A DNA stretch of 64,000 nt, taken from positions 7,408 to 71,407 of IMG/VR virus record IMGVR_UViG_3300032216_000679. One strand, written 5' to 3'. Of the stretch, positions 6,463 through 47,228 are shown piece after piece; the first letter of the stretch is position 1, and each line of letters starts with the position of its first letter. The notes under the pieces are model-generated. The model ran no database searches, had not been told where the DNA came from, and saw only the letters and a list, made by a program, of their open reading frames with translations. Source of the DNA: a virus. Its lineage: Duplodnaviria; Caudoviricetes. The position numbers were made by a program, and so were the translations under genes.

Positions 6463-6471
6463 TGCTATAAT
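6463..6471 (+). promoter_or_regulatory. extended -10 TGCTATAAT, 7 nt before ATG 6479 (leaderless)
   Basis: motif and spacing. Confidence 0.7.
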
Positions 6472-6478
6472 GGTATAT

Positions 6479-9400
6479 ATGAGCATTTCTGGAAATAAAT
6501 ATGCTGAGAGGGTGTTCGCAGAACATCCAATCGCTATGTGGAGCATGGATGATTCAGTATATTATATTTCATTATTAAATGACAATGATAGGCTTTTTAG
6601 TTATTGGAATCTTACGGGTTGTGTAGCAGATGATACTCCATATCCTCTTCCAAGCAGCACACTACCAATAGATTCTGATGTTTATTCTTCAATCACTAAA
6701 ACAAATGATAGTGCTGGAACAATAACTGCCGTATCACCAGTTATTTTTGGATTAAATGATGTTAGTAATAAAATTCCAACATTTTGTGTAAATTTTTGGT
6801 TATATCAAGAAGCAACATTTATAAATTGGTTTAAGGTTGGATACAGTTATCTTGATGACAACAACCAACTTCAAGAAGTTCTTTCTGACGAAATACCACC
6901 TCCAGAAACAAGTTCTTGGTTAAATTTTAATCACACCTATGCCCTTCCAGAAAACTGGAATGGAAGTTTAAAACTTATTATAAAAGTTGATTTTCTTAGC
7001 ACCTTTGGGGCGGGTTCTAACGGTTATGTAATTTTAAATGGATTATCTGTTGGTCAAGAGTCAGAAACATCCTGCTATGAAAATCTTGGTAGTAATGCAG
7101 TAATTTCCTTGCCAGATTCTGTGGGGGCAGATTTTTCAGACCTATCTGGAATGGTAGCAGATCAGTATGGAACATCTTTTGACAATGGTTATTATATTGT
7201 AAATAATAATTTTTTAATGGCAAAAAATGACGGTATGCCAATAATTTATGGATCTGATAGTTGTACAAAAATATATTCATATGATTCTTCTTCAAATTAT
7301 CCATCATTTATATTTCCAGGCAAAGGAATGCTTAATGATTCTGGAAGAAACAAAGTCTATACTCTTGAAATGTGGATAAAAGTAGATCCAAAAACTACTT
7401 CTGCAAAAAAAATAATCGGACCAGTATCTGGAAATAATGGCATTTATGTAAAAGAAGGCTTTATTACTTTAGTTGTTGGAAATGAAATAGCCTCTCACTG
7501 TGTGGGTGAATGGTATAGGCCAATGCTTTTACATTTATTGATTAAAGAAGATGTTGCTTGTTTACTTATTAATGGCGAACAGGTTGTTCAAGTTCCCTTT
7601 AACAGAAGCACAATAGACTTGCCAAATGATAGAGATTGGTGGGGCGTATACTCTTATCCATCAATAAAAATGTTTAGCGTAGATTGTGTCTCGGTTTTCC
7701 CATATATTGTTGCAAATTCTGTAGCAAAAAGAAGATTTGTTTATGGACAAGGCTCCCCTGCAATTCAAACCATAGATAATAAATTTGGCGGCACCCCAGC
7801 AAGCATTGACTTCTCTACAGCAGAATATAATTCAAGCATAATATACCCAGATATTGCTAGATGGGATGCAGGATATTTTGATAACATTGAGGCAAATAAA
7901 AACTATTTATCTGTTCCAAACTATTCTTTGCCAATTATAAATATTGGTGATAGGGATATTTATCAATGGTATAAGGATAATAAATCAGTATATGAATTAG
8001 AATCTGAAACAAATACAACTCCACACTTTATTTCTTTTAGACCAAATATTGAAGATAATGGAACAACTTGGAATAGAATTTCTGGAACAGACTATGTAAG
8101 CCAATCATATTTAAATTTCCCCACATTAAACATACTCAAAAACACAGTTTCTGCTGTATACGGAGTTTTTGAAATAAAGGATGATATCGAAGACTCAAGA
8201 ACCTTAATGAGTTTCATCAATGTTATAAATGAGCAATCCTTTGACATAAATATAACAGGAAACGAAATAAAATACTATCTTGATGGAATAGAACTTGAAA
8301 ATTCTTTTCAGTCAGCAGAAATAAATAAACCTTTTGTTGTTGGAATTAATTTTGAAAAAGCAACAGAATATTACGGATCAGACATTTCAAGATTCTTTTC
8401 TTCTCCATCTTCAATACAACTATATGTTGGTGGCAATTCATTAAATACTTTTGAAGGAAAAATATATACTGTTGGATTTTGCAATGAGAATAATTATAAT
8501 AAAATATCAGAAACTTTCAATGATTATGGATTTTCAAAATCTGGTACAGATCAAGAAATATTCGATCACATTAGCAGTTATACACTTATTCCAGAATACG
8601 AATATGGTCAACTATTTTTAGATATTTCTATTTCTTCAGAATGGGAAGAGTATTATCCATTAACATATTTTGCTAGTTATGTAAAAAATGGACAAGGAAA
8701 TATGACATACGATTTAGATATGTTGCAGGTAAACTTGGGTTATGCTTCTCCACAGTTAAATGAATTATGGAAATATCAGCAACTTTTGGATGAATACTCT
8801 TCATTAACATACGAAGATTTAAAAGAATCTGTTCATATAAATTATATTAATTATTTCAATTTAAAGAAAAACAATCAAAGTGGAAATGTTAATGACATAA
8901 AAGGGTCATCTGTTGAAACATATTTTACATTTCAAAAATTATCTGATGGAGCAAATGCTCCGCTATCAAGTTTTCCATATACCAAAGAATTATCAGACAC
9001 TAACTCTATTGATGCAGACTTAGAGAATACTGATGATATGCCTAAAAAAGCGTATCAAACAAAATTTATTTTTACAGATGACGTTGTTGTTTATCCACCA
9101 AAAAAGAATAATTTTGAAGATTATGCTATCGTTGCTCATTTTGTTATTAATCAAAGATCAATCTTAAAAAATCCTTTAAAAATAAAGAGTTTTGAAATAT
9201 CTTCAAAGAATTTTAATTACGCAAACTACCTTGATCCAGAAATTCAAAAAAATTATGTTGGAACAAAGTTTGGAACAAAAATATATCCAGAAATTAATTT
9301 ATATGGATTAAAAGATTATAAAAATAAGAATCCATACGTTATATCAAAAAAGACTACTCCTTACATATATACCACTAAAAAGTCTGGAGTAAAGGTTCTC

Positions 9401-10273
9401 ACTCCTTCATCAATTCAACCAACAGGAGATATCAATCAGTACAGAATTACAATTCCAATAAATAAAGACAAGGCTCAGGTATATACGGTTGGGGCATTGA
9501 ATTTCTTCCTTATGACAAATCTTCCTGGTACAGCAAATCAAATTCCATTTCTTGAAATTAAAGATAAAAATGGAATAACATTCTTGGCATTAGATAAAAC
9601 TTCTACAGAAACAGTTATTAAGGCATATAGTCAGCCAGATGTTTTTTTCATTGATGGTGGAAATGCTTATACTGATGAATGGACAAACTATTGGGATTGT
9701 GAATATTCTCCAGATACATATACCAAGACTATAAATGTTACGGTTTCTTCAGTCAATGAATCTAATTCTGTAAAAACTTATCAAGAAGTAACTAGTCCCA
9801 CATTTTATCAAAATGGAAAATATGTAAAAAATCCTTTAATTAAAAATGATGAATGGAATGTTATTGGAATATCTTTTAAAGATGAATTAGATTTTAGCGA
9901 CTTTGCTGAAGGGACTTTAAGTTTATTTGGAGGATTTACATTTGATAACGTATCTTACTTCCTTGCAGATTCATTAGGAATCAAAAGAGACTTAATATTG
10001 CGTAAATGGAACGATGTTCTCAACAAAGATGATGCTGGACAAGTTATTAGTCCACCAAATGTTTGGTCCTATTGGAATGAAGATACTTGGGAGCACGTTT
10101 ATGTAAGTGGAGGAAAGACTTCTTATTTAACTGGTCCAAAGAATATTTATAAAGCCTATACCGCCACAAATTCTTATATATCTGATGATGACATGGGAAT
10201 GAAAATGCGTCAAGAACAAACGTCAATCATTATTGGCGCATCTTGGTTAGACTATGTTCAAAAACCCGTATAA
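6479..10273 (+). CDS. large virion structural protein with a LamG/concanavalin-A-like domain
   Basis: YAERVFAEHPIAMWSMDD start; YTLEMWI...HLLI...LLINGE LamG-like pattern; about 1260 aa, beta-rich. Confidence 0.55.
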   Translation: MSISGNKYAERVFAEHPIAMWSMDDSVYYISLLNDNDRLFSYWNLTGCVADDTPYPLPSSTLPIDSDVYSSITKTNDSAGTITAVSPVIFGLNDVSNKIPTFCVNFWLYQEATFINWFKVGYSYLDDNNQLQEVLSDEIPPPETSSWLNFNHTYALPENWNGSLKLIIKVDFLSTFGAGSNGYVILNGLSVGQESETSCYENLGSNAVISLPDSVGADFSDLSGMVADQYGTSFDNGYYIVNNNFLMAKNDGMPIIYGSDSCTKIYSYDSSSNYPSFIFPGKGMLNDSGRNKVYTLEMWIKVDPKTTSAKKIIGPVSGNNGIYVKEGFITLVVGNEIASHCVGEWYRPMLLHLLIKEDVACLLINGEQVVQVPFNRSTIDLPNDRDWWGVYSYPSIKMFSVDCVSVFPYIVANSVAKRRFVYGQGSPAIQTIDNKFGGTPASIDFSTAEYNSSIIYPDIARWDAGYFDNIEANKNYLSVPNYSLPIINIGDRDIYQWYKDNKSVYELESETNTTPHFISFRPNIEDNGTTWNRISGTDYVSQSYLNFPTLNILKNTVSAVYGVFEIKDDIEDSRTLMSFINVINEQSFDINITGNEIKYYLDGIELENSFQSAEINKPFVVGINFEKATEYYGSDISRFFSSPSSIQLYVGGNSLNTFEGKIYTVGFCNENNYNKISETFNDYGFSKSGTDQEIFDHISSYTLIPEYEYGQLFLDISISSEWEEYYPLTYFASYVKNGQGNMTYDLDMLQVNLGYASPQLNELWKYQQLLDEYSSLTYEDLKESVHINYINYFNLKKNNQSGNVNDIKGSSVETYFTFQKLSDGANAPLSSFPYTKELSDTNSIDADLENTDDMPKKAYQTKFIFTDDVVVYPPKKNNFEDYAIVAHFVINQRSILKNPLKIKSFEISSKNFNYANYLDPEIQKNYVGTKFGTKIYPEINLYGLKDYKNKNPYVISKKTTPYIYTTKKSGVKVLTPSSIQPTGDINQYRITIPINKDKAQVYTVGALNFFLMTNLPGTANQIPFLEIKDKNGITFLALDKTSTETVIKAYSQPDVFFIDGGNAYTDEWTNYWDCEYSPDTYTKTINVTVSSVNESNSVKTYQEVTSPTFYQNGKYVKNPLIKNDEWNVIGISFKDELDFSDFAEGTLSLFGGFTFDNVSYFLADSLGIKRDLILRKWNDVLNKDDAGQVISPPNVWSYWNEDTWEHVYVSGGKTSYLTGPKNIYKAYTATNSYISDDDMGMKMRQEQTSIIIGASWLDYVQKPV

Positions 10274-19865: not shown

Positions 19866-22800
19866 ATGGCAGATGTGAATGCAAATATAGATATCAATAT
19901 TGATTCATCTAATGCCGTTGCCAATCTACGCAGACTTGAATTAGCAATAAATGATTATCAAAGAAATATTGCTTCTGCAAATACCGCTGCTGCTAATAGC
20001 AGTGCAGCATTAAATCGTGCTCTTGTTGACGGTATAAATAATACTGGGATGTTCTCAGCAAAGATTGCCCCAGCCACAGATTCTGTTGGTCGTTTTACCA
20101 CAGCACTTGAAAAGAATAAACTTTCTCTTGGAGAGTATACAAAGTATGCAGCATCTCAATTACCTGGATTAAGCAGGGTATTTAGAAGAGAATTTGACAC
20201 GATGCAGCAAGTTGCTGAATCACGAGTCAAAAAAATGCAAACTCAATACCTTGCTTTGGGTCAAACAATAGATGGAACTGCAAGATCAATATCTATGATG
20301 CCAAGAGGTTTGGCCCCTGGATATGCTACTGATGTTGCCCTTGCAACTCAGCGTCATCAAATGCTCAATAAGATGATTGATGATGGATCAACAAAACTTC
20401 TTAACTGGGGCAAAAATACTCAATGGGCTGGTCGTCAGTTGATGGTCGGCTTTAGTATTCCTTTGGCGGCACTTGGAGTAACAGCATCAAAAACATTTAT
20501 GGAAATTGATAAGGCTACAACTTCATTAAAAAGAGTTTATGGAGACTTAAGCACTACCTCAGAAGAAGTAAATAAAAATATTGCTGCCATCAATGCTTTG
20601 GGAAAAGAATATACCAAGTATGGAATTGCTCTTTCTGATACAGTAAATGTTGCTGCTACTGCTGCTGCCGCAGGTATGAAAAACGAACAACTTACCGCTA
20701 ACACAAAAGAATCATTGAGACTTGCTACATTGGGTCAAATTGATTATCAACAGGCTCTAACAACAACTATTACTTTGCAAAATGCTTTTGGCACAAGTAA
20801 TAAAGAACTTGCTCCTACAGTAGATTTTATTGGTGCTGTCGCAAACCAAACAGTTTTAAGTGTTGATGATCTCACTCAAGCAATTCCAAGAGTTGCTCCA
20901 GTAATTAAAGGTTTGGGCGGCGATGTAAAGGATCTTGCCGTCCTGCTCGTTGCTATGCGTGAAGGAGGTGTTAGTGCAGAACAGGGTGCAAACGCATTAA
21001 AATCTGGTCTTGCCAATTTAATTAATCCAACTAAATCTGCTACTGAAGCGACAGCAAAATATGGAATAAGTTTGCAATCAATAATAGAGACTAATAAGGG
21101 CGACATTATGGGAACAATAAAGTCTTTAGCATCAGCATTATCCAATCTAGATGAGTTCAGTCGTCAACAAGTTTTAGAAAAAGTTTTTGGTAAGTATCAG
21201 TTTGCTCGTATTGGAGCATTGTTTGATCATATTAATGAAAAAACTGGTCAAGTAAAGCAGGCAATGGATCTTCTTGGCATGAGTACTCAAGATCTTTCAA
21301 AAGTATCAGAAAAATCATTAACGGCAATATCAGAATCTACAAGTGTCAAATTTAAAGCCACTCTTGAACAATTAAAAATTTCAATTGCTCCGCTTGGTCA
21401 AGCATTTCTTAAAGGCATTACTCCAATTGTAAGCATGGTTAGCAAAGTTGCCGATGCTTTTAATAATCTTCCAGATGGAGTAAAAAATGTTGTTGCTGTT
21501 ATTATTGCCGCTGTTGCTGGATTAGGTCCAGTTATTCTTATGTCTGTAGGTCTTCTTGCTAATGGTTTTGCAAATATCGTTAAAGTTATTCAAGTATTTA
21601 GAAAAGGTCTTGCTGGCATTCGTGGAGATGCAGATTCTTTTAAATATCTTTCTACTGCTGAAATTGAGGCTGCCGCTGCAACAGATGCATTAGAAGGAAG
21701 TGTTCAAAGTTTAACGGGAAAACTTTTATTACAAAAAGGCGCTGTTTCTTCACTAACTCAAGAATATTTAAGATTTATTGATGTTGCAGGTGTGGCGGCG
21801 GCTGTAGATGGTATTGGAGGATTTGGTGGTATAGCAGGAGGAATGCCAACAAGGGGCGCTGCTGCAACACGAGGAGCATCAAAAGCAGCAATGCGTATGG
21901 CAACGGGCGGTATTGTTCCTGGCACTGGAAGTGGAGATACAATCCCCGCTCTTCTTACTCCTGGTGAAAGCGTTATAACTAAAGAAGCCACACAAAAATA
22001 TGCTCCAATTCTTCATGAAATGAATAAGGGAACTCTTCCTGGATTTGCTGGAGGTCTTATTGGTAAAACACTTTCCTCTTTAATGACAACAAGAAGTGGA
22101 ATTCCAGGGATAACGCGTGGAAGAATTCCTCTTTTACAAAAAATGACAGACATTGCTGCATCAAGAGGAATTAGGCCAATGGGTGGAAGAATGTTAGATC
22201 CATCAAAGCCCCCCACACTTGAAAGAGGGGAAGGAACATATGCAGCAGTTGCAATTACTAAAGGGCATGTTGCTCCAAAAATTCAGTCAGGAAATGGTGA
22301 TGCATATCATCCAGGATTAATGTTTTGGCAAGGTAAAGAAGTAAACCATTTATTAAGTAAAAGTAGTGTTACTGGTCAACAAATATTATCAGATTTTAAA
22401 TTATTAGAAAAGAGTGGAGTTTACCCACCATCTCTAATGATCTCTGCGGCAAGAAAACTTGGATTAAAAGAAGAAACAATAGATGCCGCATATGCTGAAT
22501 TAAAGAAGCAACTTAGAAATAAAAGAGATCATATATTTAAGGATTCTGATTTCTTAGATTTTGCTGGAAAAATTTTGTATGAAAAAATGGATAAGGATGT
22601 ATTCTCTACGTTGTTTAATATTGGAACTTTAAGGTCTAAAGGAAAATCTGTTGATGCTCTTACATATGATCAATTTAAACAAAATCATTTTTCTTTAGGT
22701 GGAATATCTATTGGTCAAGCATTAAGAACTTGGCAAACAAGTTCTAGACAAGTTAGAGAGAATCCTGAATTACTTGCTGCAATTATGGGTGGTATGCAAC

Positions 22801-25800
22801 AATCCTCTACATCACGAACTCTTCATAGATCAACAACCTTAGGTCTTGGAAGAGGAAGTGAATTCAATCCACAAGAATCAGCAATTCTTTTTGAAGCATT
22901 AAGATCAGGAAATGTTGGAAGTCTTGTAGGAAGAGAATTTTCAATTGACTCTCCAGTAAGTTATACCGCTGGAGGATTGGGCGGCACGCTTGGGGCGCTT
23001 GCACAAAATACAGATGTTAATAGAATTAATTCTTTAATCAATCAGTTGTATCAAAGAAAAAATAGAAGGGCTGACGACCTTAAACTTTTAGAAAAAGCAA
23101 GAAGAAATTTTGATGCTGGAATTATGCCAGATCTCAATGAAAAAAGAATAAAAGAACTTGAACAAAAAACAGAAAAAACTAAATATCTTGCAGAACAAAA
23201 AAGACTTCAGCAACAAATAAAAGAACTTGCTCCACGCGGATATCAAAATGTTGTTTTTGAGCAAAGATTTCCAAAGGGCAGTCCCCTTCTTGATGTAAAC
23301 GCAGCAACGGGTGGCGCTGGAACTTACATGGGGCAAAACGTTGCTCATGAACAAGAATTTATTTCTCCTGGATCAAGGGTAAGGGTTGTTGATGTTCAAG
23401 TAGATCCAAAAACTGGATTAACAAAAATAATTACTGAAGCATTGCCAATGAAATTTGCTAGTGGAGGAATTGTTCCTGGTACAGGAAATAAGGACACTAT
23501 CCCAGCCCTTCTTACTCCTGGAGAATCTGTTATCAACAAAAAGGCAACTCAAAAATATGCGCCAATACTTCATCAAATGAATCAAGGAACTTTGCGAGGG
23601 TTTGCATTGGGTGATGAAGATATTCAAAGTACAAGAAGATATGGATCTACCACTCATAAAGCATTAAAAGAGGAACTAATGTCTTTGCCAATATCTCAAG
23701 AACAATTGGCAATGGAACTTGAAAGATTAGATAGAGCACAATTAGCAGCGCAAGCATCTGCAATAGCACTTGAAGAATTTTATATAAGACAAAATAATGG
23801 AATGGAATTAACACAAAGACAATTAAATGCCATTGAACAAGCCAAGCAAGTTGATCGTGCTCATGCTGTTGCTTACGAGGGAGAAAAATATTCTCCTGAG
23901 AATTGGACCAAAGATATGTGGCAAATTGCTCCAAGGCAACAAAATGCAATGTCTCAATCAATGGCTCAAAGCCCTAGAAATCAAGAAGTATATTTTGCAG
24001 AACTTGAAAAAATGAAATTAAATGAAGAAGAAGCGGCTTCAATTAGACATAAAATAGTTAATGATCTTCAATTAACAGATAAAGAATTGATAATTCAAAA
24101 TCAAGTATTATCAAATATTGTTGATAAAATTGAAGAGGGAACAATTAAGCAACATCAGATATCTGATAATTTCCATGCTTGGGCAGTTTCAACTATTGCA
24201 GCAACAGAAGCAATGTTTTCTCCTGAACTTTTAAAGGCAAGTCAGAAAAAAGAAAAAAATGATGGAAGATACATTGCTCCAGGACAATATTTATATAATA
24301 CAAAATTACAAGAAGAAAAGTCAAAGACTGGTGACTATATTCCAAGAGGTCCGTTAGCAGCGCTTTTTAGAGAAAATGGTGCAATAGGAAAAGATCGTCC
24401 TATTTTATCAGCAGGGAAAGTATTTCCATCAAGAAATTTTTCTGAGATTGAAGGGAATCCAATTCCAAAAGTTAGAGAAGAAATTGTTAAATCAGGAAGA
24501 CTTGTAGGGAAAAGTATTGCAGATTCATTAAAAACTATTCCTCAATCAGCAAAAGAGTTATCTGCTGCTACTCAAACTTCTATAACTCAAACAAAATCTC
24601 AATCAAAAAATATTTTTTCATCAATGGCATCAACAATTTCTCCCGTTACTGATCTTTTTGCCAAACAAAGCGAAAGAAAGCAAGCGGCAACAAGAAAAGG
24701 AACTTATGACGCTAATTTGCGTGCCGCAGCAGGAAAAGCATCAACATTAACATTGCCAAGGGTTCCTGGAATAATTGGTCTTGAACAAATGCCGTCACAA
24801 ATTTCTAATGCTCTTAAAGATGTTGTTTATAACATAAAATCTGGCGACCTTCAATTAAAAGAAGGATTTTCAATAATTGGAAAAGATTTAATGACAAATG
24901 GAAAAATTCTTTCAGGAAACATAAAAACCACATTGTCAGAAACGGCACAAAAGGTTTCTTTGCAACTTTCTCAAGCAGGAAATACAATGAAAGATGCAAT
25001 GATAGGTGCTGAATTAAAAATTAGAGAGGCTAGCGCAAAAACAGCAGGAAGAATTTCTGGAGGAATATCTTCAGCAGGCAATTGGCTATATGGCAAAGAA
25101 GGAAACGAATTAAGTAGATCCCAAAAATTTGGAAATAAAGCGATGGGTGCGAGCATGGCCTTAGGAATGGCGTCCATGCTTCCTATGATGTTACAAGATA
25201 AAAATGGCAAAGCCCTAGGCATGGATGCAGGTAAACTATCAATGACTATGATGGGCGGAAGTGCCATCTTGGGCATTCTTCCAATGCTTGGTCCAGCAGC
25301 AGTTCCAGTAGCAGCATTGGCTGGAGCCGCAGCAATTGCGGGGGTATCATTAAATAAGTGGAGAAGTAGCCTTGATGATGCTGCAAAAGATGCTGCAACA
25401 TTAGGTTCAAATATGGGTGGCGCAGCAAATGCAGTAGGAAGAATGGCAGACATTCTTGGAGCAACAGATCCATTAAAGGCAAGACAAACTTTGCAATTAG
25501 CGGTTGCACCTAAACAACAAGAAGAGTTTTCAAAATATTCTTCAATGTTGCAAGAAGGTGCTGGAAAACAGTTTATTGAAGAACTTCAGGCAGCAACTTC
25601 TGAGGAAAGATTTTCTAAACTTTCGAGTTATTTGAAAAATGCTATAGCAGCAGGAATGCTTAATGAGGATCAAGCAAAATTATTTTCTAAAGCAGTGGGC
25701 TTTCAATTAAACGATGTTTTACTTGGCATAAGAGCGGGAGGATCAGCAAGTGGACAAAAAACAGGATCTGCCGCACTTCTTGAATTAGCAAGACAAAGAG

Positions 25801-28800
25801 AAAATGCTGTATCTGGCAATGGAAGAATAAAGTCTGTTATTAATTCTAATATGCCAGATAGTGTTAATTCCGCAGATGCGGCATTTGCTATAGGCGCTGG
25901 AACACAAATATCTCAGGCATATAGCGAAGCAGCAGCAAAAGCAAATGAAGATTATAAAAATGGAATAATAACTTTTAAAGAACTTACAAACACTGTCAAT
26001 GAAACAAAAATTGCAATTTCTAAATGGGGAAGTGTTGTTCAAAAGGCAACACAAAATACTGATGATACTGGTGCCACTGCTCAAGGAACACAGGCAGCAA
26101 TGGCCCTTGCTGGCGTTACAGAAGATCAAAGAAATGCATTGCAAGATGTATATAACAATGCTTATAAGACAGCAAGCGAAAATACTTCTGGCGCTCAAAT
26201 GCAATTCTTGAATAAACAAGGAACATCATATGGGAAAGCAATCGGTTCTGAGGCTGGATATAAATACTTAGAAAATAAAGCAACAGGTGCTGGCTATGAA
26301 GCAAACATGCAAGGCGTACAAGCGTATATGGAAAAGGGTGGAGAAAAGGCTCAAAAAGATTTATTATTAGCACAAAAAATATCTGATCAATTAAAATTGG
26401 CAACAAAAAATGATGCCTTACAATCTGCTATGAATTTAGCAGTTTCAAACGGCATGATAAACCCATCACAAGCGTCATCAAATCTTAATGCAATTGTTAA
26501 TGATCCAAAAGCATTAGAATATTTTAATAATGCTGGTCAAACTGCACAAGCGTTTACAGACGCATTATCAAAAGCAAATTCAGACATACTATTTTCTTCT
26601 GAAGAATATAAAAATAGGTTGACAAATTTAGCAATTAGTCTTCCAACAGATGAACTAAGAAATTCTCTTAATGCCTATGTTTCATCTGCAAATTCAGAAA
26701 CAGAAAGTAAATCAAGGCTTAATAGGGTTGTTAATTTGCGTGGTGCGCCTAATGGCAGAGAATTACAAGCACAATTCTTAAACAATGTAGATATTGCAAA
26801 TCAGTATGGATATAATGCAGATATTATTCAATCAAGAAAAGGATTTAAAGATATCCTTGGCCTTAATAGTTTTGGTTTTCCTACTGATAAAAATAGTGCT
26901 AAAAATCTTGCAAATTATAATAAATCTTTAAGTGCTGCTGGACAAGCAGGATTATCTCAAGGAGCAGTAAATTATGCTACCGAAAAAGGTGGAAAAAATG
27001 CTTCTTCTAAAATAAACAATTTAATTTCAGATTATCAAAAATTAATGGCTATGCCAGAAGAAGTAAGGTTAGCAATAAATATAGATACAAATAAGGGCGA
27101 AGATCTTGATAAATTTGGTCCAGAAGCAGAAAAATTAACTGCAAACTGGAACATTCTTCAAAATTTAAATCCAAATATTGATATTTCTTTAGTGGCAAAA
27201 TGGGTAATGACTGATGGAAATGGAAATGCTTTAGATCCTGCTGAAACAACTTTAAGGATGCTTAAGTTAAATAAAGCAATGGATCAGTTTAACAAGTCTG
27301 GCAAAAAGGGAAGATATCAAGCATCAGTAGATATTGTTACTGCATTAACAAATGAGGGAAAGAGTTTAACTCAAGGCATTACTCCAGAAGATGTTGTCAA
27401 AGATGTTGAGATGAAATTAGCAAAAATTGGTAAAAAACTTTCAGACCTTACTCCAGAACAGGCGTCAGCAGTCTTTCAAATAGACGTTTCAACATTAATT
27501 ACTGGTGCAGATATTGCTGCAAAAGCAGCAGAAATAACAACAAAGATGACTGAGACAAAAGATGTTGGTGATAAGTTAATGTATGCAAGAGAACTAGAAG
27601 CATTAACTACTTCAACACAGGCACTTAACACAGATACTGAGGCAGCCATGTTTGCTGCCGCCACCACGCCAACTAGTTCTGGTTCAGGTGGAGGAGGAGG
27701 TTCAGCAGATTTTAGAAAACAACTTATAAAAGACACTCAAGCAAATACCAATCTCTTTGTAAAGGCAAAAGGTGCTCCTAATGGATTGTTGCAACAATTT
27801 AAAAATGATTTTAAAAAGAAGGCTGGATTCAATCTTCCTCAAACAATTTTGGATCAAATTGGTGTTGGCGTAGAAGGAGAAAAAAATCTTACTTTATTGA
27901 AAAAAATGGGAATAGATAAGTTTGTCGCTTTTATTAAAAAATATTTAAAGTCACTAGCAGGGCAGGCTTCAGCAGCAATTGATGACGAGATTACTGCTAA
28001 CAATAAAAAAGTTGAAGCCATTAGAAGCATGAAGGCGGCAGGATATAGTGAGGACCAAGTTCAAGCCGCCCTAGCAAGTGATTCATTTATGCAAGAACTT
28101 GATGCTATGGGAAATACTTCTAAAGGCGCTCAAGGATTACGATCACAACTTGATAGACTTACCGCTTCTCAAAAAGCAGTAACAGATGCCTCAATGACAG
28201 CAGAACAAGCATTGCAAAATCAACGTGATGCAATGCAAAAAGATGCCGACATTATTAACAATGCCCTTGCAAAACAAGAAGATCAAATTAAAATTGACAA
28301 TGCTGCCAAATTCTTAGCAGACAATGGAATGACAACAGATCAAATGCACCATCAAATTGATGCTAATAATAAAATTATTCAACAAGAACAAGATAAGATT
28401 AATGCAAAGCAATCACAAATTGATTCATTGAATAGACAAAATGAATTAAACAATAGAATTTCTGATGCATTAAGTCATGATCTTGACATAATGAGCCAAC
28501 AAGAACAAAAAATTAGAGAAACATATCAAAAGAGAATTGATGCTCTTAACAAGGTTGCTGAAATAAATGATCATATTGCACAACAACAACAAGATCAAAT
28601 TGGTTTTGCCAAAGCATTAAGCGAGGGTGACGTTTATGCCGCTGCTCAAGCAGCACAACAAATGCAACAAAACGATATTCAATATGCTAGAAAACAACAA
28701 CAAGATGCTTTGCAAACAGGAATGCAAAATGAAGTAGACAATCTTAAAACTCCTAGTGGTTTAACAAAAAAGCAAGCAGAACAACAAATTAATGCTATTA

Positions 28801-29651
28801 AAGAACAATCTTATCAAATAAGTTTAAGGATAAGAAGTATTCAAGATGAAATTTATACTATTCAAAATGGACAAATGAAAACTCTTCAAGATCAAAATGA
28901 ACAGTATTCTAGAAAACTTCAATATAATGATGAAGATTTAAATTGGCAATTACAAACAGCAGATTTTCAAGGCCATTCAAGGCAATGGTGGATTGATCAT
29001 ATTGCATATTTAGAACATGCAATGACAAATACTAATGGTCTTGGAGATGCCACACAACGTCTTGTTGACTTAATGAACCAATATAATGCAGGAAGGCCAA
29101 GCGGATCTGCTGGTGAAGCAACATCTTCTAATGGACTACCACAACAAGCATCTAATGGTCAATCCTTTTCTGATATGACTGGAACAGATATTGGTAATTT
29201 AACTGGATCAGATATTGGAAACTATATTCGATGGGCTCATGGAGGACCAGGAGCATTTGTAATGGCAACAGGAGGAATGGTTCCAAGATATTATGCTTCT
29301 GGTGGACATGTAAACATGGATTCAGTTCCTGCCATGCTTACCCCTGGGGAATTTGTGATGCGTAAAGCAGCGGTACACAAGTATGGCATAGGAGCCCTTT
29401 CAGATATGAATACTGGAAGATGGGATGTTCCTAAATATAATACTGGAAAACTTTATGCTTCTGCCCCCAACGTTGGCTCATCATCACGAGGAAATATGCA
29501 AAACAATATCTCTGCTCCAGTGTATAATACTTATAGTATTAATGTTCCTGTCAATCAGCCTGGGGCATCTGCTGATGAAATTGCAAGCAAGGTTATGATG
29601 AAGATAAAGAACATAGAAAACAGTTCAATTAGGAGAATCGGTGGATATTAA
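19866..29651 (+). CDS. tape measure protein (3261 aa) with internal cargo domains
   Basis: follows the chaperone frameshift; NWGKNTQWAGRQL, TP901-type core (LAVLLVAMREGGVSAEQGANALKS), long helical/coiled-coil regions, C-terminal DSVPAMLTPGEFV. Confidence 0.92.
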   Translation: MADVNANIDINIDSSNAVANLRRLELAINDYQRNIASANTAAANSSAALNRALVDGINNTGMFSAKIAPATDSVGRFTTALEKNKLSLGEYTKYAASQLPGLSRVFRREFDTMQQVAESRVKKMQTQYLALGQTIDGTARSISMMPRGLAPGYATDVALATQRHQMLNKMIDDGSTKLLNWGKNTQWAGRQLMVGFSIPLAALGVTASKTFMEIDKATTSLKRVYGDLSTTSEEVNKNIAAINALGKEYTKYGIALSDTVNVAATAAAAGMKNEQLTANTKESLRLATLGQIDYQQALTTTITLQNAFGTSNKELAPTVDFIGAVANQTVLSVDDLTQAIPRVAPVIKGLGGDVKDLAVLLVAMREGGVSAEQGANALKSGLANLINPTKSATEATAKYGISLQSIIETNKGDIMGTIKSLASALSNLDEFSRQQVLEKVFGKYQFARIGALFDHINEKTGQVKQAMDLLGMSTQDLSKVSEKSLTAISESTSVKFKATLEQLKISIAPLGQAFLKGITPIVSMVSKVADAFNNLPDGVKNVVAVIIAAVAGLGPVILMSVGLLANGFANIVKVIQVFRKGLAGIRGDADSFKYLSTAEIEAAAATDALEGSVQSLTGKLLLQKGAVSSLTQEYLRFIDVAGVAAAVDGIGGFGGIAGGMPTRGAAATRGASKAAMRMATGGIVPGTGSGDTIPALLTPGESVITKEATQKYAPILHEMNKGTLPGFAGGLIGKTLSSLMTTRSGIPGITRGRIPLLQKMTDIAASRGIRPMGGRMLDPSKPPTLERGEGTYAAVAITKGHVAPKIQSGNGDAYHPGLMFWQGKEVNHLLSKSSVTGQQILSDFKLLEKSGVYPPSLMISAARKLGLKEETIDAAYAELKKQLRNKRDHIFKDSDFLDFAGKILYEKMDKDVFSTLFNIGTLRSKGKSVDALTYDQFKQNHFSLGGISIGQALRTWQTSSRQVRENPELLAAIMGGMQQSSTSRTLHRSTTLGLGRGSEFNPQESAILFEALRSGNVGSLVGREFSIDSPVSYTAGGLGGTLGALAQNTDVNRINSLINQLYQRKNRRADDLKLLEKARRNFDAGIMPDLNEKRIKELEQKTEKTKYLAEQKRLQQQIKELAPRGYQNVVFEQRFPKGSPLLDVNAATGGAGTYMGQNVAHEQEFISPGSRVRVVDVQVDPKTGLTKIITEALPMKFASGGIVPGTGNKDTIPALLTPGESVINKKATQKYAPILHQMNQGTLRGFALGDEDIQSTRRYGSTTHKALKEELMSLPISQEQLAMELERLDRAQLAAQASAIALEEFYIRQNNGMELTQRQLNAIEQAKQVDRAHAVAYEGEKYSPENWTKDMWQIAPRQQNAMSQSMAQSPRNQEVYFAELEKMKLNEEEAASIRHKIVNDLQLTDKELIIQNQVLSNIVDKIEEGTIKQHQISDNFHAWAVSTIAATEAMFSPELLKASQKKEKNDGRYIAPGQYLYNTKLQEEKSKTGDYIPRGPLAALFRENGAIGKDRPILSAGKVFPSRNFSEIEGNPIPKVREEIVKSGRLVGKSIADSLKTIPQSAKELSAATQTSITQTKSQSKNIFSSMASTISPVTDLFAKQSERKQAATRKGTYDANLRAAAGKASTLTLPRVPGIIGLEQMPSQISNALKDVVYNIKSGDLQLKEGFSIIGKDLMTNGKILSGNIKTTLSETAQKVSLQLSQAGNTMKDAMIGAELKIREASAKTAGRISGGISSAGNWLYGKEGNELSRSQKFGNKAMGASMALGMASMLPMMLQDKNGKALGMDAGKLSMTMMGGSAILGILPMLGPAAVPVAALAGAAAIAGVSLNKWRSSLDDAAKDAATLGSNMGGAANAVGRMADILGATDPLKARQTLQLAVAPKQQEEFSKYSSMLQEGAGKQFIEELQAATSEERFSKLSSYLKNAIAAGMLNEDQAKLFSKAVGFQLNDVLLGIRAGGSASGQKTGSAALLELARQRENAVSGNGRIKSVINSNMPDSVNSADAAFAIGAGTQISQAYSEAAAKANEDYKNGIITFKELTNTVNETKIAISKWGSVVQKATQNTDDTGATAQGTQAAMALAGVTEDQRNALQDVYNNAYKTASENTSGAQMQFLNKQGTSYGKAIGSEAGYKYLENKATGAGYEANMQGVQAYMEKGGEKAQKDLLLAQKISDQLKLATKNDALQSAMNLAVSNGMINPSQASSNLNAIVNDPKALEYFNNAGQTAQAFTDALSKANSDILFSSEEYKNRLTNLAISLPTDELRNSLNAYVSSANSETESKSRLNRVVNLRGAPNGRELQAQFLNNVDIANQYGYNADIIQSRKGFKDILGLNSFGFPTDKNSAKNLANYNKSLSAAGQAGLSQGAVNYATEKGGKNASSKINNLISDYQKLMAMPEEVRLAINIDTNKGEDLDKFGPEAEKLTANWNILQNLNPNIDISLVAKWVMTDGNGNALDPAETTLRMLKLNKAMDQFNKSGKKGRYQASVDIVTALTNEGKSLTQGITPEDVVKDVEMKLAKIGKKLSDLTPEQASAVFQIDVSTLITGADIAAKAAEITTKMTETKDVGDKLMYARELEALTTSTQALNTDTEAAMFAAATTPTSSGSGGGGGSADFRKQLIKDTQANTNLFVKAKGAPNGLLQQFKNDFKKKAGFNLPQTILDQIGVGVEGEKNLTLLKKMGIDKFVAFIKKYLKSLAGQASAAIDDEITANNKKVEAIRSMKAAGYSEDQVQAALASDSFMQELDAMGNTSKGAQGLRSQLDRLTASQKAVTDASMTAEQALQNQRDAMQKDADIINNALAKQEDQIKIDNAAKFLADNGMTTDQMHHQIDANNKIIQQEQDKINAKQSQIDSLNRQNELNNRISDALSHDLDIMSQQEQKIRETYQKRIDALNKVAEINDHIAQQQQDQIGFAKALSEGDVYAAAQAAQQMQQNDIQYARKQQQDALQTGMQNEVDNLKTPSGLTKKQAEQQINAIKEQSYQISLRIRSIQDEIYTIQNGQMKTLQDQNEQYSRKLQYNDEDLNWQLQTADFQGHSRQWWIDHIAYLEHAMTNTNGLGDATQRLVDLMNQYNAGRPSGSAGEATSSNGLPQQASNGQSFSDMTGTDIGNLTGSDIGNYIRWAHGGPGAFVMATGGMVPRYYASGGHVNMDSVPAMLTPGEFVMRKAAVHKYGIGALSDMNTGRWDVPKYNTGKLYASAPNVGSSSRGNMQNNISAPVYNTYSINVPVNQPGASADEIASKVMMKIKNIENSSIRRIGGY
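21891..22055 (+). repeat. 55-codon direct repeat, copy 1 (inside the tape measure gene)
   Basis: MRMATGGIVPGTGSGDTIPALLTPGESVITKEATQKYAPILHEMNKGTLPGFAGG; 44/55 aa identical to copy 2. Confidence 0.95.
22716..23447 (+). other. ADP-ribosyltransferase-like domain within the tape measure protein
   Basis: LHR (R at 22827), VGREFSIDSPVSYT (S-Y-T 22959-22967), VVFEQRFPKGSPLLDV, HEQEFISPGSRVRV (ExE 23349-23357). Confidence 0.65.
23448..23612 (+). repeat. 55-codon direct repeat, copy 2
   Basis: MKFASGGIVPGTGNKDTIPALLTPGESVINKKATQKYAPILHQMNQGTLRGFALG; offset 1557 nt (in frame). Confidence 0.95.
29262..29420 (+). repeat. diverged third copy of the repeat near the tape measure C-terminus
   Basis: MATGGMVPRYYASGGHVNMDSVPAMLTPGEFVMRKAAVHKYG. 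Confidence 0.8.
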
Positions 29652-43830: not shown

Positions 43831-43932
43831 GTGGGGGAGGCACGCTGTTCGTGCAAAAGGATTTCGCTTAGGATGGTTGTAGTTAACTAGTAGTTCTGGT
43901 TGAGATTCCTACACAGAAGTTGCCTCCCCCAC
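43831..43932 (+). ncRNA. candidate structured RNA (rod-like hairpin) between ssb and dnaE
   Basis: perfect 12-bp closing stem GTGGGGGAGGCA/TGCCTCCCCCAC plus nested helices CTGT/ACAG, AGGATTTC/GAGATTCCT and AGGAT/GTTCT. Confidence 0.45.
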
Positions 43933-43955
43933 CCCCTATCTTTGAAAGGATTGTT

Positions 43956-46900
43956 GTGCATAGATATACCCCGCTACATGTTCATACACATTTTAGTCAG
44001 ATGGATGGGGTTGCCACTCCAGAAGAATATGTAGAAAGAGCCATGCAGAATGGCATGGAAGCCATAGCCATTACAGATCATGGCACCCTCTCAGGACACA
44101 GGCCGATGTATCGCGCAGCCAAGTCTGCTGGTATTAAGCCTATTTTGGGAGTAGAAGGATATATTACTGCTGACAGATTTGATAAGAGAGATAAGAGCGA
44201 GAGGACAACTCCGCTTGACATGGTTTACAACCACATTATTATTATTGCAAAGAATGATCAAGGACTTGACAATCTTGGCAAACTTAACGAAATTTCATGG
44301 ACTGAGGGCTACTACCGCAAGCCCCGCATTGACTTTGAGGTATTAGAAAAATATCGTGAAGGACTAATTGTTTCTTCTGCTTGTATGTCTGGCCTAATCA
44401 ATAAGGCTATTGAGGTAGATGATTATGCTGTAGCAAAGCAGCATTTGAAGTGGTTCTCTGATCGCTTTGGCGATGATTTTTATGTAGAGGTTATGCCTCA
44501 CAATCCTCCAGAGATTAATAAGGCTTTGGTTGAACTTGCCGATGCAGCAGGACACAAGATTATTGTTACACCTGACTGTCATCATGCGACGGTAGATCAA
44601 AAGGTAATTCAGGAAATGATGCTTATCCTTAACACTCATGCCAAACTTGAGAAGGATATTGCATATGATAAGTCTGTTAAACATACAGACATGATGGACA
44701 GACTTGACTATCTTTATGGTAAAGATCGCATGATGAGTTTTAATAAGTTTGATATTCATTTGCTCTCTGCTGATGAGATGCGTATCGCTATGGAGGAAAA
44801 CGGAGGATTCCGTGATGATATGTTTGTTAATACGATGGAAGTATCAGATAAAATTGAAGACTATACAATTAGTCGCAATCTCAACCTGCTTCCTGTCGAA
44901 CACAGAGATCCTGATAAGGAGATTCGTGATCAATGTCTACGATTCCTTAAGCAGAATAATCTTGAATCTCAAGAATATCTAGATCGACTAGAGGAAGAAC
45001 TCTCGGTAATTAAGAATAAGAAGTTTGCCTCATACTTCATCGTTGTTCGTAATATGCTTACATGGGCAAAGAAGAATGATATTATGGTTGGGCCTGGGCG
45101 AGGATCTAGTGCAGGATCTCTTGTATGTTATGCCCTTGGCATTACAGATATTGATCCTATTAAGTATGGTTTGCTATTCTTCCGCTTCATTGACATTGAT
45201 CGTGATGATTTCCCTGACGTAGACTCTGATATTCAGGATAGCCGTCGTGAAGAAGTAAAAGATTATCTAGAAAGGCAATATAGACATGTCGCTTCAATTG
45301 CCACCTTCTTACAGTTCAAGGACAAGGGAGTCGTGCGAGATGTGGCTCGCTGCTTAAACGTTCCTCTTTCTGATGTTAATCGTGCTTTAAAGACTATAGA
45401 TACTTGGGACGAGTATGTAATGTCAAAAAATGTTGCATGGTTCCGCGATAAATATCCAGAGATTGAGCAATACGGAGGCCAGTTGCGTGGCCGTATTCGT
45501 GGAACAGGAATCCATGCAGCAGGAGTTGTAACATCAAAGATTCCAATTTCTAAGGTCGCTCCAATGGAAACAAGATCTATTACAGGACAAGATACGAGAA
45601 TTCCTGTGGTCGCTATTGATATGGAAGAAGCAGCAGATATTGGTCTGATTAAGATTGATGCCTTAGGACTAAAGACTTTAACTGTTCTTAACGATACTCT
45701 CAAAATTATTGAAGAGCGTCATGGAAAGAAGATTGATCTAAATAAGATTGATTTAGAGGATAGGAATATTTATGCCATGCTTTCTGATGGTTACACCAAG
45801 GGTGTTTTCCAATGCGAAGCAACTCCTTATACAAATCTTCTAATCAAAATGGGCGTAAGCAAGTTTGACGAACTTGTAGCATCAAATGCTCTGGTGCGCC
45901 CAGGCGCCATGAACACCATTGGTAAAGAGTATATTGCTCGCAAACGTGGTACAAGTGGAATTGTTTATAGTAATACAATTCTAAAAGAATTCACAGAAGA
46001 CACATATGGGTGTATCCTATACCAAGAGCAAGTTATGCTCGCCTGTCAGCGTCTTGGAGGCATGACAATGGGTGAGGCTAACAAGGTTCGAAAGATCATT
46101 GGTAAGAAGAAGGATGCGAAAGAGTTTGATGAATTCAAGGAGTTATTTGTTCGGAATGCGACTGGGCCACTTGGTGGGGCGGCTGCTGAGAAGATGTGGC
46201 ATGACTTTGAGGCCCACGCAGGGTACTCGTTCAATAAGTCTCATGCGGTCGCTTACTCAACTCTGTCGTACTGGACAGCATGGCTCAAATACTACTATCC
46301 AATAGAATTTATTTTTGCTCTTCTTAACAATGAAAAGGATAAGGATGCTCGTACAGAGTATTTGATTGAGGCAAAGCGAATGGGAATTCCATTGCGCCTT
46401 CCACATATTAATGATTCTGATGCCGATTTTAAGATTGAGGGCAAGGGAATTAGATTCGGTCTATCAAGCATTAAGTTTATTTCTGATAAGATCGCTTCAA
46501 GATATGTTGAGGGTCGTCCATTTAAATCTTTTAAAGAAGTAGAAGAGTTTACTTTTACAAAAGGTAATGGCGTTAATAGTCGTGCGCTATCATCTCTAAA
46601 TGCTATTGGTGCATTAACATTTCCAGACAATCCAAGGAATGATGAAAGCATTAAGGAAAACATGTATGAATACCTTAATCTTCCTGAATTTAATATTCAG
46701 GTTCCACAACACTATCATGCCTACATTAGTTCTGTAGATGACTTTGATGAAAAGGGTGCATTTATTCTTATGGGTGTTGTGCGTGGAATTAAGCGAGGTA
46801 AGGGCTGGAGCCGTGTAGAAATTCTAGACGGTACTGGATCAGTTGGGATATTTGATGAAGAAGAAACTTCTATTGAAGCAGGTAGGACTTATATTATTCT

Positions 46901-47228
46901 TGCTGGATCTAACAGAATTGTGGAAGCAGTTCCTGTTGACGAGTTACAGGAAAGCAAGTCTGCGCTTGTCAGATTCTTGAATTACAAACAACTTCCATAT
47001 AGTCAAGATGAGCATTATGTGCTATCCTTTAAACCTCGCATTACAAAAGCGGGTAAAAGAATGGCTAGCCTAGTTGTGGCTGATAGCGGAAGAGAACTCA
47101 TGTCGATGATTGTATTTCCATCGACATTTGCAATGGCATATACTCGTTTAGAAGAGGGCAGTGCTTATAAGATTAATTACAGTGTCTCAAAAGATGAGGA
47201 CTTAGTATTTCAGGAGGTAGTAGCGTGA
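43956..47228 (+). CDS. dnaE: DNA polymerase III alpha subunit (family C); GTG start after SD GAAAGGA (track start 43920 is too early)
   Basis: PHP HVHTHFS/TDHG/GVEGY; GPGRGSSAGS; DFPDVDSD; GTGIHAAG; KIDALGL; YSFNKSHAVAYS. Confidence 0.95.
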   Translation: MHRYTPLHVHTHFSQMDGVATPEEYVERAMQNGMEAIAITDHGTLSGHRPMYRAAKSAGIKPILGVEGYITADRFDKRDKSERTTPLDMVYNHIIIIAKNDQGLDNLGKLNEISWTEGYYRKPRIDFEVLEKYREGLIVSSACMSGLINKAIEVDDYAVAKQHLKWFSDRFGDDFYVEVMPHNPPEINKALVELADAAGHKIIVTPDCHHATVDQKVIQEMMLILNTHAKLEKDIAYDKSVKHTDMMDRLDYLYGKDRMMSFNKFDIHLLSADEMRIAMEENGGFRDDMFVNTMEVSDKIEDYTISRNLNLLPVEHRDPDKEIRDQCLRFLKQNNLESQEYLDRLEEELSVIKNKKFASYFIVVRNMLTWAKKNDIMVGPGRGSSAGSLVCYALGITDIDPIKYGLLFFRFIDIDRDDFPDVDSDIQDSRREEVKDYLERQYRHVASIATFLQFKDKGVVRDVARCLNVPLSDVNRALKTIDTWDEYVMSKNVAWFRDKYPEIEQYGGQLRGRIRGTGIHAAGVVTSKIPISKVAPMETRSITGQDTRIPVVAIDMEEAADIGLIKIDALGLKTLTVLNDTLKIIEERHGKKIDLNKIDLEDRNIYAMLSDGYTKGVFQCEATPYTNLLIKMGVSKFDELVASNALVRPGAMNTIGKEYIARKRGTSGIVYSNTILKEFTEDTYGCILYQEQVMLACQRLGGMTMGEANKVRKIIGKKKDAKEFDEFKELFVRNATGPLGGAAAEKMWHDFEAHAGYSFNKSHAVAYSTLSYWTAWLKYYYPIEFIFALLNNEKDKDARTEYLIEAKRMGIPLRLPHINDSDADFKIEGKGIRFGLSSIKFISDKIASRYVEGRPFKSFKEVEEFTFTKGNGVNSRALSSLNAIGALTFPDNPRNDESIKENMYEYLNLPEFNIQVPQHYHAYISSVDDFDEKGAFILMGVVRGIKRGKGWSRVEILDGTGSVGIFDEEETSIEAGRTYIILAGSNRIVEAVPVDELQESKSALVRFLNYKQLPYSQDEHYVLSFKPRITKAGKRMASLVVADSGRELMSMIVFPSTFAMAYTRLEEGSAYKINYSVSKDEDLVFQEVVA

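Follow-up and report, generated by a model that had tools for sequence, protein, structure and literature searches.

A giant tape measure protein (TMP) of siphovirus type, encoded by an uncultured aquatic phage, carries within its reading frame a domain that is predicted to be an R-S-E mono-ADP-ribosyltransferase (ART). We consider it rather probable, from a structural model and from the conservation of the predicted active site, that this enzyme would be delivered pre-made to the host at the start of infection. The domain lies between two copies of a repeat, which had been taken as the borders of a mobile cassette; among relatives, it is single domains that are exchanged.

A tape measure protein with an ADP-ribosyltransferase-fold domain

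The genome of the source phage is about 110 kb long, and its record holds 71 kb and is about 66% complete. The window, that is the whole stretch of DNA analysed here, covers 64,000 nucleotides, and all features given below lie on its + strand. The TMP gene (P0001, 19866..29651) is a single ORF of 3261 aa, so that both repeats are in one frame, as originally claimed. That it encodes a TMP, as originally predicted, and one of the PF10145/TP901 type, is confirmed by a PF10145 PhageMin_Tail domain (Pfam, aa 242-442, E 1.3e-30), by the length and helical nature of the protein, and by the gene order, in which a tail tube gene and two chaperone-sized ORFs precede the TMP gene and tail-tip genes follow it. 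Two hydrophobic segments were found: the first (aa 535-575, 21468..21590; mean 2.5 over 19 aa in a Kyte-Doolittle scan) may be a membrane-inserting TMP segment, and the second (aa 1798-1830, 25257..25355), identified by its hydrophobicity, is rich in Gly and Ala.

The AlphaFold2 (AF2) model of aa 945-1194 (22698..23447) has a mean pLDDT of 82.8 and a pTM of 0.73, and displays the split beta-sheet core of ARTs. All 35 rows listed by Foldseek against the PDB at E≤1.1e-3 are ARTs, the top matches being Plx2A, C3bot, CDTa, C3larvin, Certhrax, VIP2 and iota. All 50 entries listed by VIA are also ARTs (Z 11.7-13.1), the best one with Z 13.1 and an rmsd of 3.0 over 148 aligned residues. In BFVD, the domain matches ARTs of phages, fusions of MuF with an ART, and VIP2 proteins, the latter two including proteins of actinobacteriophages. 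On the model, the segment folds as a C3/VIP2/iota-type R-S-E ADP-ribosyltransferase, and the fold expected from the letters alone is recovered, with C3, VIP2, iota, CDTa and phage ARTs as its neighbours. The ART core is shared with C3bot and C3lim, VIP2, iota Ia, CDTa, Plx2A, C3larvin, Certhrax and the Listeria ART-ARH effector 8ZA7 (Z 12-13, ~148 residues, rmsd ~3 Å).

The three catalytic motifs proposed earlier (LHR, SYT and EQE) are present at the predicted places, and fall on the expected elements of the model: strand 1, a strand before a helix, and a loop before a strand. Arg988 (22827..22829), in the motif L-H-R (aa 986-988), is on the first core strand (model strand 66-74), and is invariant in two alignments, of 16 and 10 sequences. 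The S-x-T/S motif, Ser1032-Tyr1033-Thr1034 (22959..22967), is on model strand 113-116; in the same two alignments S1032 and Y1033 never vary, and either T or S follows them. This S-Y-T/S departs from the classical S-T-S, of which it is the putative counterpart by its position, 44 residues after the Arg. The E-x-E, Glu1162-Gln-Glu1164 (23349..23357), occupies the ARTT-loop position just before model strand 246-249; both glutamates are invariant, and the motif occurs as EQE, EKE, ENE, EEE, ERE or EGE. Together R988, S1032, Y1033, E1162 and E1164 are kept across 16 sequences whose identity goes down to 23-25%. E1164 is 30 residues before the end of the range aligned by VIA, and the corresponding distance in C3bot, C3lim, iota and VIP2 is about 31-33 residues. 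Topology, spacing and invariance are what suggest that these residues are equivalent to the R, S and E of known ARTs. E-x-E is the signature of arginine-type ARTs, and the invariant first Glu would point to an arginine acceptor.

The domain resembles C3 and binary-toxin ARTs in the order and spacing of the Arg, the presumed Ser-x-Thr/Ser and the [Q/E]-x-Glu, and in the N-terminal helices that precede the beta core. Its middle motif differs from theirs in being S-Y-T, where they have S-T-S, and its fold contains an insertion (aa 1042-1121, 22989..23228; model helices 124-128, 131-165, 170-183 and 186-203), a helical hairpin of ~80 aa placed directly after the S-x-T strand, close to the ~95 aa estimated earlier; no other part of the domain alignment varies as much. 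The domain is also not a secreted toxin but an internal part of a phage structural protein of 3261 aa, and its target is presumably bacterial. Finally, it differs in being undetectable by sequence: the structural alignments show 8-19% identity, and the gathering threshold of PF03496 (ADPrib_exo_Tox) is not reached, nor was this family found in the 71-kb record.

Other searches led to the same result. Pfam gave no match for the 574-aa stretch, and none at E≤10 for 10 members of the domain family. PDB sequences were searched with phmmer and with profiles of the whole domain and of each of its halves (N and C), which returned chance coiled-coil matches only; no match was obtained when the insert was compared with GenBank phages by tblastn, and a pattern scan of IMG/VR for the domain gave none. 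Only 13 hits were obtained among 1.84 billion representative proteins, and the detectable homologues are confined to giant TMPs. A profile search for stand-alone carriers (133-457 aa) found none; the same was true of mid-size carriers (458-2000 aa), in a search that was weak, as it missed carriers already known (1819 and 1876 aa). By these searches the domain is a sequence-orphan family of putative enzymes, invisible to sequence annotation. Its dN/dS of 0.18-0.20 indicates that it is under purifying selection. No compositional sign of a recent foreign origin was seen (GC3 of 0.16, vs 0.18-0.19 in the rest of the gene).

A repeated module and the exchange of single domains

The two repeats are copies of a module of 55 aa. 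Copy 1 (aa 676-730, 21891..22055; core DTIPALLTPGESV) and copy 2 (aa 1195-1249, 23448..23612) start 1557 nt, or 519 codons, apart and share 44 of 55 residues, all as first described. At the DNA level, they have 120 of 165 nt in common, and 74% identity over the nucleotide repeats (21889-22048 and 23446-23605). Repeat comparison also revealed a diverged third copy near the C-terminus (aa 3137-3191, 29274..29438; core DSVPAMLTPGEFV), in which 14-15 of the 55 residues are identical. Copies 1 and 2 have no more than 14 identical nt in succession, and 28 of their 45 nucleotide differences are at third codon positions, which indicates that the module is old and constrained at the protein level. Most of the related giant TMPs that we retrieved contain it, in as many as 7 copies, and it was also found in the TMPs of phages from 223 GenBank records; the distances between modules and what lies between them differ from one TMP to another. 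From its sequence conservation, the module is an old and widespread TMP element. In the clade of P0001 it marks domain junctions. Modelled alone, copy 1 has a low-confidence fold (AF2, pLDDT ~30); an anchoring or processing role is possible.

Between copies 1 and 2, the ART domain is preceded by a Gly/Arg/Pro-rich linker (aa 731-794, 22056..22247), predicted to be disordered (AF2 pLDDT ~27-33), and by an alpha/beta domain of orphan fold (aa 795-944, 22248..22697; AF2 pLDDT ~87-98), whose homologues have H801, P816, M819, Q822 and N827 as invariant columns. No match to this orphan domain was found in the PDB by Foldseek (E>0.7) or in a wide VIA search of PDB folds (best Z 3.3), and none in the ESM-Atlas by fold (TM≤0.33) or by features. 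The inter-repeat region had been described as non-helical and globular; the lack of helices holds for part of it, the region being made up of the disordered linker, the folded alpha/beta domain (795-944) and the ART-like domain (945-1194) with its helical insertion of ~80 residues.

The original prediction saw in the block between the repeats a discrete cargo cassette, which recombination between the repeats would add, drop or swap, in the manner of polymorphic toxins. Some observations agree with this. The homology of the N-terminal part with relatives stops within ~25 aa past module copy 1 (about aa 722-756) in at least 12 of them, and inter-module distances and contents vary. The history of the ART is discordant with that of the N-terminus: relative to L007, dS is 0.12 in the ART vs 0.50 in the N-terminus, and relative to L008, amino-acid identity is 63% vs 91%. 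However, ART and orphan domain occur independently among relatives. The orphan domain is found without a BLAST-detectable copy of the ART (E≤1e-4) in P0014, P0015, P0123 and P0125, an absence that means undetectable by BLAST at this threshold; faint ExE-type stretches in P0014, P0017, P0018 and P0021 suggest more diverged ARTs there. Moreover, the right edge that relatives share for the ART is its own C-terminus ('...TEALP'), and module copy 2 directly abuts the ART in three proteins only (P0001, P0002 and P0004). No relative was found in which the whole block is precisely deleted, leaving one merged copy of the module. Macro, ARH and NADAR domains were searched for as possible antidotes in the 71-kb record and not found, nor was an immunity-type gene, but as the record is only ~66% complete, a missing antidote is weak evidence.

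Domain-wise mosaicism is therefore what the relatives display, the exchanged units being single domains. We find it unlikely that the block behaves as a cassette: what stood of that proposal is that contents between modules vary, and gain, loss or swap as one unit was not seen. The repeats do not appear as a special boundary either, given a module common in TMPs generally, at most 14 identical nucleotides in a row and mostly third-position differences. We do not think that a discrete cassette recombines through them, and the likeness to polymorphic toxin cassettes is lost with domains that move singly and with no immunity-type gene found in the ~66% complete record.

Proposed delivery of the putative enzyme and alternative roles

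The presence in a TMP of a toxin-type ART domain with a conserved active site suggests that a host-modifying enzyme, made in advance, probably enters the cell before the phage DNA does. The TMP would exit the tail lumen into the host envelope or inner membrane before the DNA; its ART domain, already synthesised, would thereby gain access to NAD+ in the cytoplasm. There it would ADP-ribosylate a host target as soon as infection begins, serving either takeover of the host or anti-defence. A role of TMPs in injection across the inner membrane has been described (10.1101/2025.11.03.685801). Virion-delivered ARTs, such as T4 Alt and MuF-ART, are a known phage strategy and are read as injected proteins (PMC9503650).

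With T4 Alt and the MuF-ART or VIP2 fusions, the TMP would share a pre-made R-S-E ART in the virion, presumably delivered with the DNA. It differs from them by its carrier, a tail protein where theirs are head-internal, MuF or portal-associated: the ART is internal to the TMP and has no head-targeting context, is not packaged in the capsid in the way of T4 Alt, and is Alt-like only in its presumed virion delivery. The gain of an extra globular domain in frame also recalls TMPs with peptidoglycan hydrolase, NlpC/P60 or peptidoglycan-binding domains, and some of the giant TMPs retrieved through the module carry PF00877 NlpC/P60 or peptidoglycan-binding domains. Such cell-wall domains work outside the cytoplasm, whereas an ART needs NAD+ and so needs access to the cytoplasm. 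In the literature, we found no paper describing an ART within a TMP, and a 2022 survey of viral NAD and ADP-ribose systems does not contain the word 'tape' (PMC9503650).

Two points speak against delivery. A folded domain of 250 aa, present once per TMP chain, is hard to fit in the lumen of a siphovirus tail. In addition, the infected cell itself synthesises the TMP at a late stage, and the enzyme could act there instead. The ART might then modify phage components (self-modification, assembly control) or act otherwise late in the producing cell, without being delivered. TMPs are indeed made in an NAD+-containing cytoplasm late in infection, and the lack of any ADP-ribosylhydrolase or other antidote in the 71-kb record would fit an enzyme tolerated or wanted in a doomed cell, although the incompleteness of the record weakens this argument. 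But a virion protein expelled at infection is an odd place for a purely late cytoplasmic enzyme, and the virion-associated ARTs of other phages are read as injected (PMC9503650); we regard exclusive late action as improbable.

Slightly less probable still is that the ART fold has lost catalysis and serves the TMP as a structural, binding or decoy element, for instance by binding a host protein or an NAD-derived signal, or as a spacer. Against an ART reading at all, no sequence method recognises the domain, and its middle motif is S-Y-T and not S-T-S; strong divergence from all sequence families and the large helical insertion would also suit a dead fold. Yet the residues that stay invariant in 16 sequences at 23-25% identity are precisely those for catalysis (Arg, Ser and both Glu), and purifying selection acts on the domain. 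An active enzyme with a nucleic-acid or small-molecule acceptor (pierisin/Scabin/DarT-like or of RNAylation type) has the lowest standing. Enzymes of this kind do belong to the fold class, the TMP accompanies the DNA, and the helical insertion could conceivably bind nucleic acid or target, but C3/VIP2/iota-type enzymes that modify proteins are the best matches by structure, and E-x-E is of arginine type.

Delivery of a protein-modifying ART remains our preferred reading. A broader proposal, which we put forward as speculative, is that giant TMPs are modular effector-delivery polyproteins: interchangeable cargo, here the orphan domain and an arginine-specific ART, would be strung between anchoring or processing modules and released into the cytoplasm before the DNA, disarming defence or taking over the cell.

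To our knowledge, virion-delivered ARTs have so far been tied to phage heads (Alt, MuF fusions), mainly in myoviruses. If delivery from the TMP is true, the tail lumen would also be an effector-delivery compartment, a route for enzymes distinct from that of head-packaged Alt and MuF effectors, and segments of the TMP would reach the cytoplasm. An ART within a TMP would then offer a testable handle on the role of TMPs after ejection, and on why some of them span thousands of residues.

A predicted ADP-ribosyltransferase domain in the tape measure protein

The product of window 19866-29651 (plus strand, one ORF of 3261 codons) is a tape measure protein (TMP), named P0001. A Pfam search placed PF10145 (PhageMin_Tail) at aa 242-442 (E 1.3e-30). 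Upstream of the gene lie portal, prohead protease, major capsid protein, a tail-tube-like protein with an Ig domain, and two small ORFs of chaperone size; downstream are found tail proteins of 210 and 1834 aa. The IMG/VR record containing the window is 71.4 kb long and estimated to be 66% complete, and its nearest relatives are metagenome contigs of 111-113 kb with identical gene order. Elsewhere in the window, a 1267-aa ORF (6470-10273, plus strand) with no Pfam or PHROG match sits between the ribonucleotide reductase and portal genes, a position conserved in L001, a genomic stretch of a related phage. At 43920-47228 (plus strand) the phage has a gene for a complete DNA polymerase III alpha subunit of the DnaE type, with PHP, NTPase, finger and HhH domains.

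The original prediction, made from the DNA sequence, had proposed an ADP-ribosyltransferase (ART) inside the TMP, with R-S-E motifs in order and a helical insertion after the SxT motif. We built two AlphaFold2 models on alignments of TMP homologues, the first covering aa 676-945 (alignment A3) and the second aa 919-1194 (alignment A1). The second had a mean pLDDT of 82.8 and a pTM of 0.73, its folded part being model residues 28-276 (aa 945-1194). Foldseek against the PDB returned 49 matches at E≤1e-3 and, among the matches listed, all were R-S-E ADP-ribosyltransferases, including Plx2A, C3bot1/2, C3lim, C3larvin, CDTa, Certhrax, VIP2 and iota Ia. VIA-align likewise gave 50 entries, all ARTs (Z 11.7-13.1, rmsd about 3 Å, 142-151 residues aligned), among them BECa, CPILE-a, C2-I, C3stau, C3cer and a Listeria ART-ARH effector. 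The matches among viral structure models were phage 'ADP ribosyltransferase', MuF-ART fusion and 'VIP2' proteins. The fold proposed for this region is thus the one that the predicted structure matches.

Conservation was read from A1 (16 full TMPs) and from A2 (10 excised domains), with identities down to 23-25%. Invariant residues included R988 (in L-H-R), S1032-Y1033 (in S-Y-T/S), and E1162 and E1164 of an E-x-E motif whose middle position varies (Q, K, N, E, R, G), as well as W956, Q957, R964, P967 and F1135. In the model, R988 lies on strand 66-74, S-Y-T lies on strand 113-116 and is followed at once by a helix, and E-x-E stands directly ahead of strand 246-249. These modelled positions match the Arg, the S-T-S and the ARTT-loop [Q/E]-x-E of the R-S-E clade, S-Y-T being a variant of the classical S-T-S and its probable counterpart by position. 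An invariant first Glu of E-x-E is a signature of arginine-directed ARTs. Arg988 and Ser1032 are 44 residues apart, and E1164 is 30 residues from the end of the VIA-aligned range, the corresponding distance being about 31-33 residues for E214 of C3bot, E174 of C3lim, E380 of iota and E428 of VIP2. From Ser1032 to Glu1164 there are 132 residues, versus about 40 in the R-S-E clade; the surplus is a helical hairpin (aa 1042-1121), which is the insertion originally predicted. Because topology, spacing and invariance agree, we regard the three sites as probable equivalents of those of known ARTs, and the ART reading of aa 945-1194 is supported by the predicted fold and the conserved active-site positions.

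At the sequence level, Pfam gave zero matches at E≤10 for the 574-aa stretch or for any of 10 ART homologues, PF03496 was absent from the 71.4-kb record (66% complete), and PDB sequence profile searches with the whole domain or each half returned chance matches only. An exhaustive phmmer search of the insert against 1.84 billion representative proteins gave 13 matches. Those spanning most of the ART part were all giant TMPs or fragments of them, and P0124, a 280-aa protein, matched only the last ~80 residues. No shorter carrier turned up in profile searches, of which the mid-size one was weak, as it missed known carriers of 1819 and 1876 aa. By these searches the ART domain is shown as a sequence orphan, occurring only in TMPs among detected homologues. 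It is under purifying selection, with dN/dS of 0.18-0.20 against the two nearest relatives.

The stretch ahead of the ART was also modelled. Module 1, the first repeat, and aa 731-794 were of low confidence (pLDDT ~27-50), and aa 795-944 (window 22248-22697) formed an alpha/beta domain with pLDDT 87-98. The latter has invariant H801, P816, M819, Q822 and N827 and the motif P-G-L-M-F-W-Q-G-K-x-x-N. Its fold had no match in the PDB (Foldseek E>0.7; best VIA Z 3.3 against 48,161 chains) or in the ESM Atlas (TM≤0.33). Other giant TMPs, some with the ART and some without it, carry this orphan domain as well, and it may be a second cargo domain.

Repeats and domain exchange

The repeats reported originally were exact as described: module 1 (aa 676-730) and module 2 (aa 1195-1249) are identical at 44 of 55 residues and 1557 nt apart, the DNA pair (window 21889-22048 and 23446-23605) being 74% identical. 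A third, diverged copy is found at aa 3137-3191. Over the whole modules, 120 of 165 nt are identical, no exact run exceeds 14 nt, and third codon positions account for 28 of the 45 mismatches. The pair is therefore an old duplication kept by protein-level selection and no fresh recombination repeat. The module, of about 55 aa with the pattern G-G-x-V-P-G-x-G-x-x-D-T-[IV]-P-A-x-L-T-P-G-E-x-V ... N-x-G, is carried by the majority of 128 related giant TMPs; by a strict core pattern, 123 of them hold at least two copies, with a maximum of 7. By tblastn it matched TMPs in 223 GenBank phage records, which include Salmonella 9NA/Sasha-like, Klebsiella, Gordonia, Mycobacterium, Vibrio, Burkholderia and Synechococcus phages. 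By sequence comparison, then, the pair in P0001 is not special, the same module recurring across giant TMPs.

Members of this TMP family are conserved over the N-terminal ~730 aa, of which module 1 forms the end, and again at the C-terminus; the middle is mosaic. In a dozen relatives, homology to P0001 is lost within about 25 aa past module 1. P0001-3 and P0008 have both the orphan domain and the ART; in P0004-7, P0009-13, P0121, P0127 and P0128 the ART is preceded by another segment; and the orphan domain is found without BLAST-detectable ART in P0014, P0015, P0123 and P0125. The two domains thus behave independently within the block between the repeats. P0021 had a weak ART match (27% identity). 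Faint similarity to the C-terminal half of the ART, with E-x-E followed by a hydrophobic strand, was seen in P0014 (~1464-1511), P0017 (~1311-1425), P0018 (~1465-1524) and P0021 (1413-1612), a hint that more diverged ARTs may be common in this group even where BLAST detects none.

On the right-hand side, the breakpoint is the C-terminus of the ART itself ('...TEALP'). Module 2 directly follows only in P0001, P0002 and P0004, a different segment in P0003, P0005 and P0006, and yet other segments in P0007, P0010 and P0013. The ART (window 22698-23447) has a dS of 0.12 with L007:4947-5696, from a related phage, versus 0.50 for the TMP N-terminus; with L008:4950-5708, from the P0007 phage, amino acid identity is 63%, versus 91% for the N-terminus. 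The history of the ART is discordant with that of its flanks, a sign of recent allele exchange; phages thus do exchange ART alleles, but at domain edges. (In the P0007 phage, an HNH endonuclease gene, L008:647-1252, separates the tail tube and tail chaperone genes; the window has none there.)

The repeat-bounded cassette first envisaged therefore stands in part. The break of homology after module 1 and the exchange of the ART agree with it; exchange at domain edges and the independence of the two domains do not. Recombination between the repeats as its mechanism is mostly unsupported, given the 14-nt exact run and the three proteins in which module 2 follows the ART, and among the relatives none was found with the 1557-nt block cleanly missing and one merged module.

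Proposed delivery into the host

A 2022 survey of viral NAD/ADPr systems linked ARTs to MuF, portal, head packaging and myoviruses, and does not contain the word 'tape' (PMC9503650). In literature containing both 'tape measure protein' and 'ADP-ribosyltransferase', neither term was in any title or abstract. The P0001 ART is not categorically new, since virion-delivered ARTs and TMPs with an embedded enzyme are both known kinds. T4 Alt and MuF-ART fusions are interpreted as enzymes that are packaged in the head and injected (PMC9503650); the parallel is the proposed entry of the ART with the virion, although the present ART is part of the TMP. No Macro, ARH or NADAR gene was found in the record, which is partial (66% complete).

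Two strongly hydrophobic, Gly/Ala-rich segments, aa 535-575 (window 21468-21590) and aa 1798-1830 (window 25257-25355), bracket the ART-bearing part of the TMP and may be membrane-inserting. A study of lambda describes its TMP as assisting genome passage through the inner membrane (10.1101/2025.11.03.685801). Delivery of the ART to the host via the TMP is plausible: the TMP would fill the tail lumen, be expelled upon infection and help the genome cross the inner membrane. The ART, sited between the two hydrophobic segments, would then meet cytoplasmic NAD+ ahead of any phage gene expression, and would ADP-ribosylate a host protein, likely at arginine.
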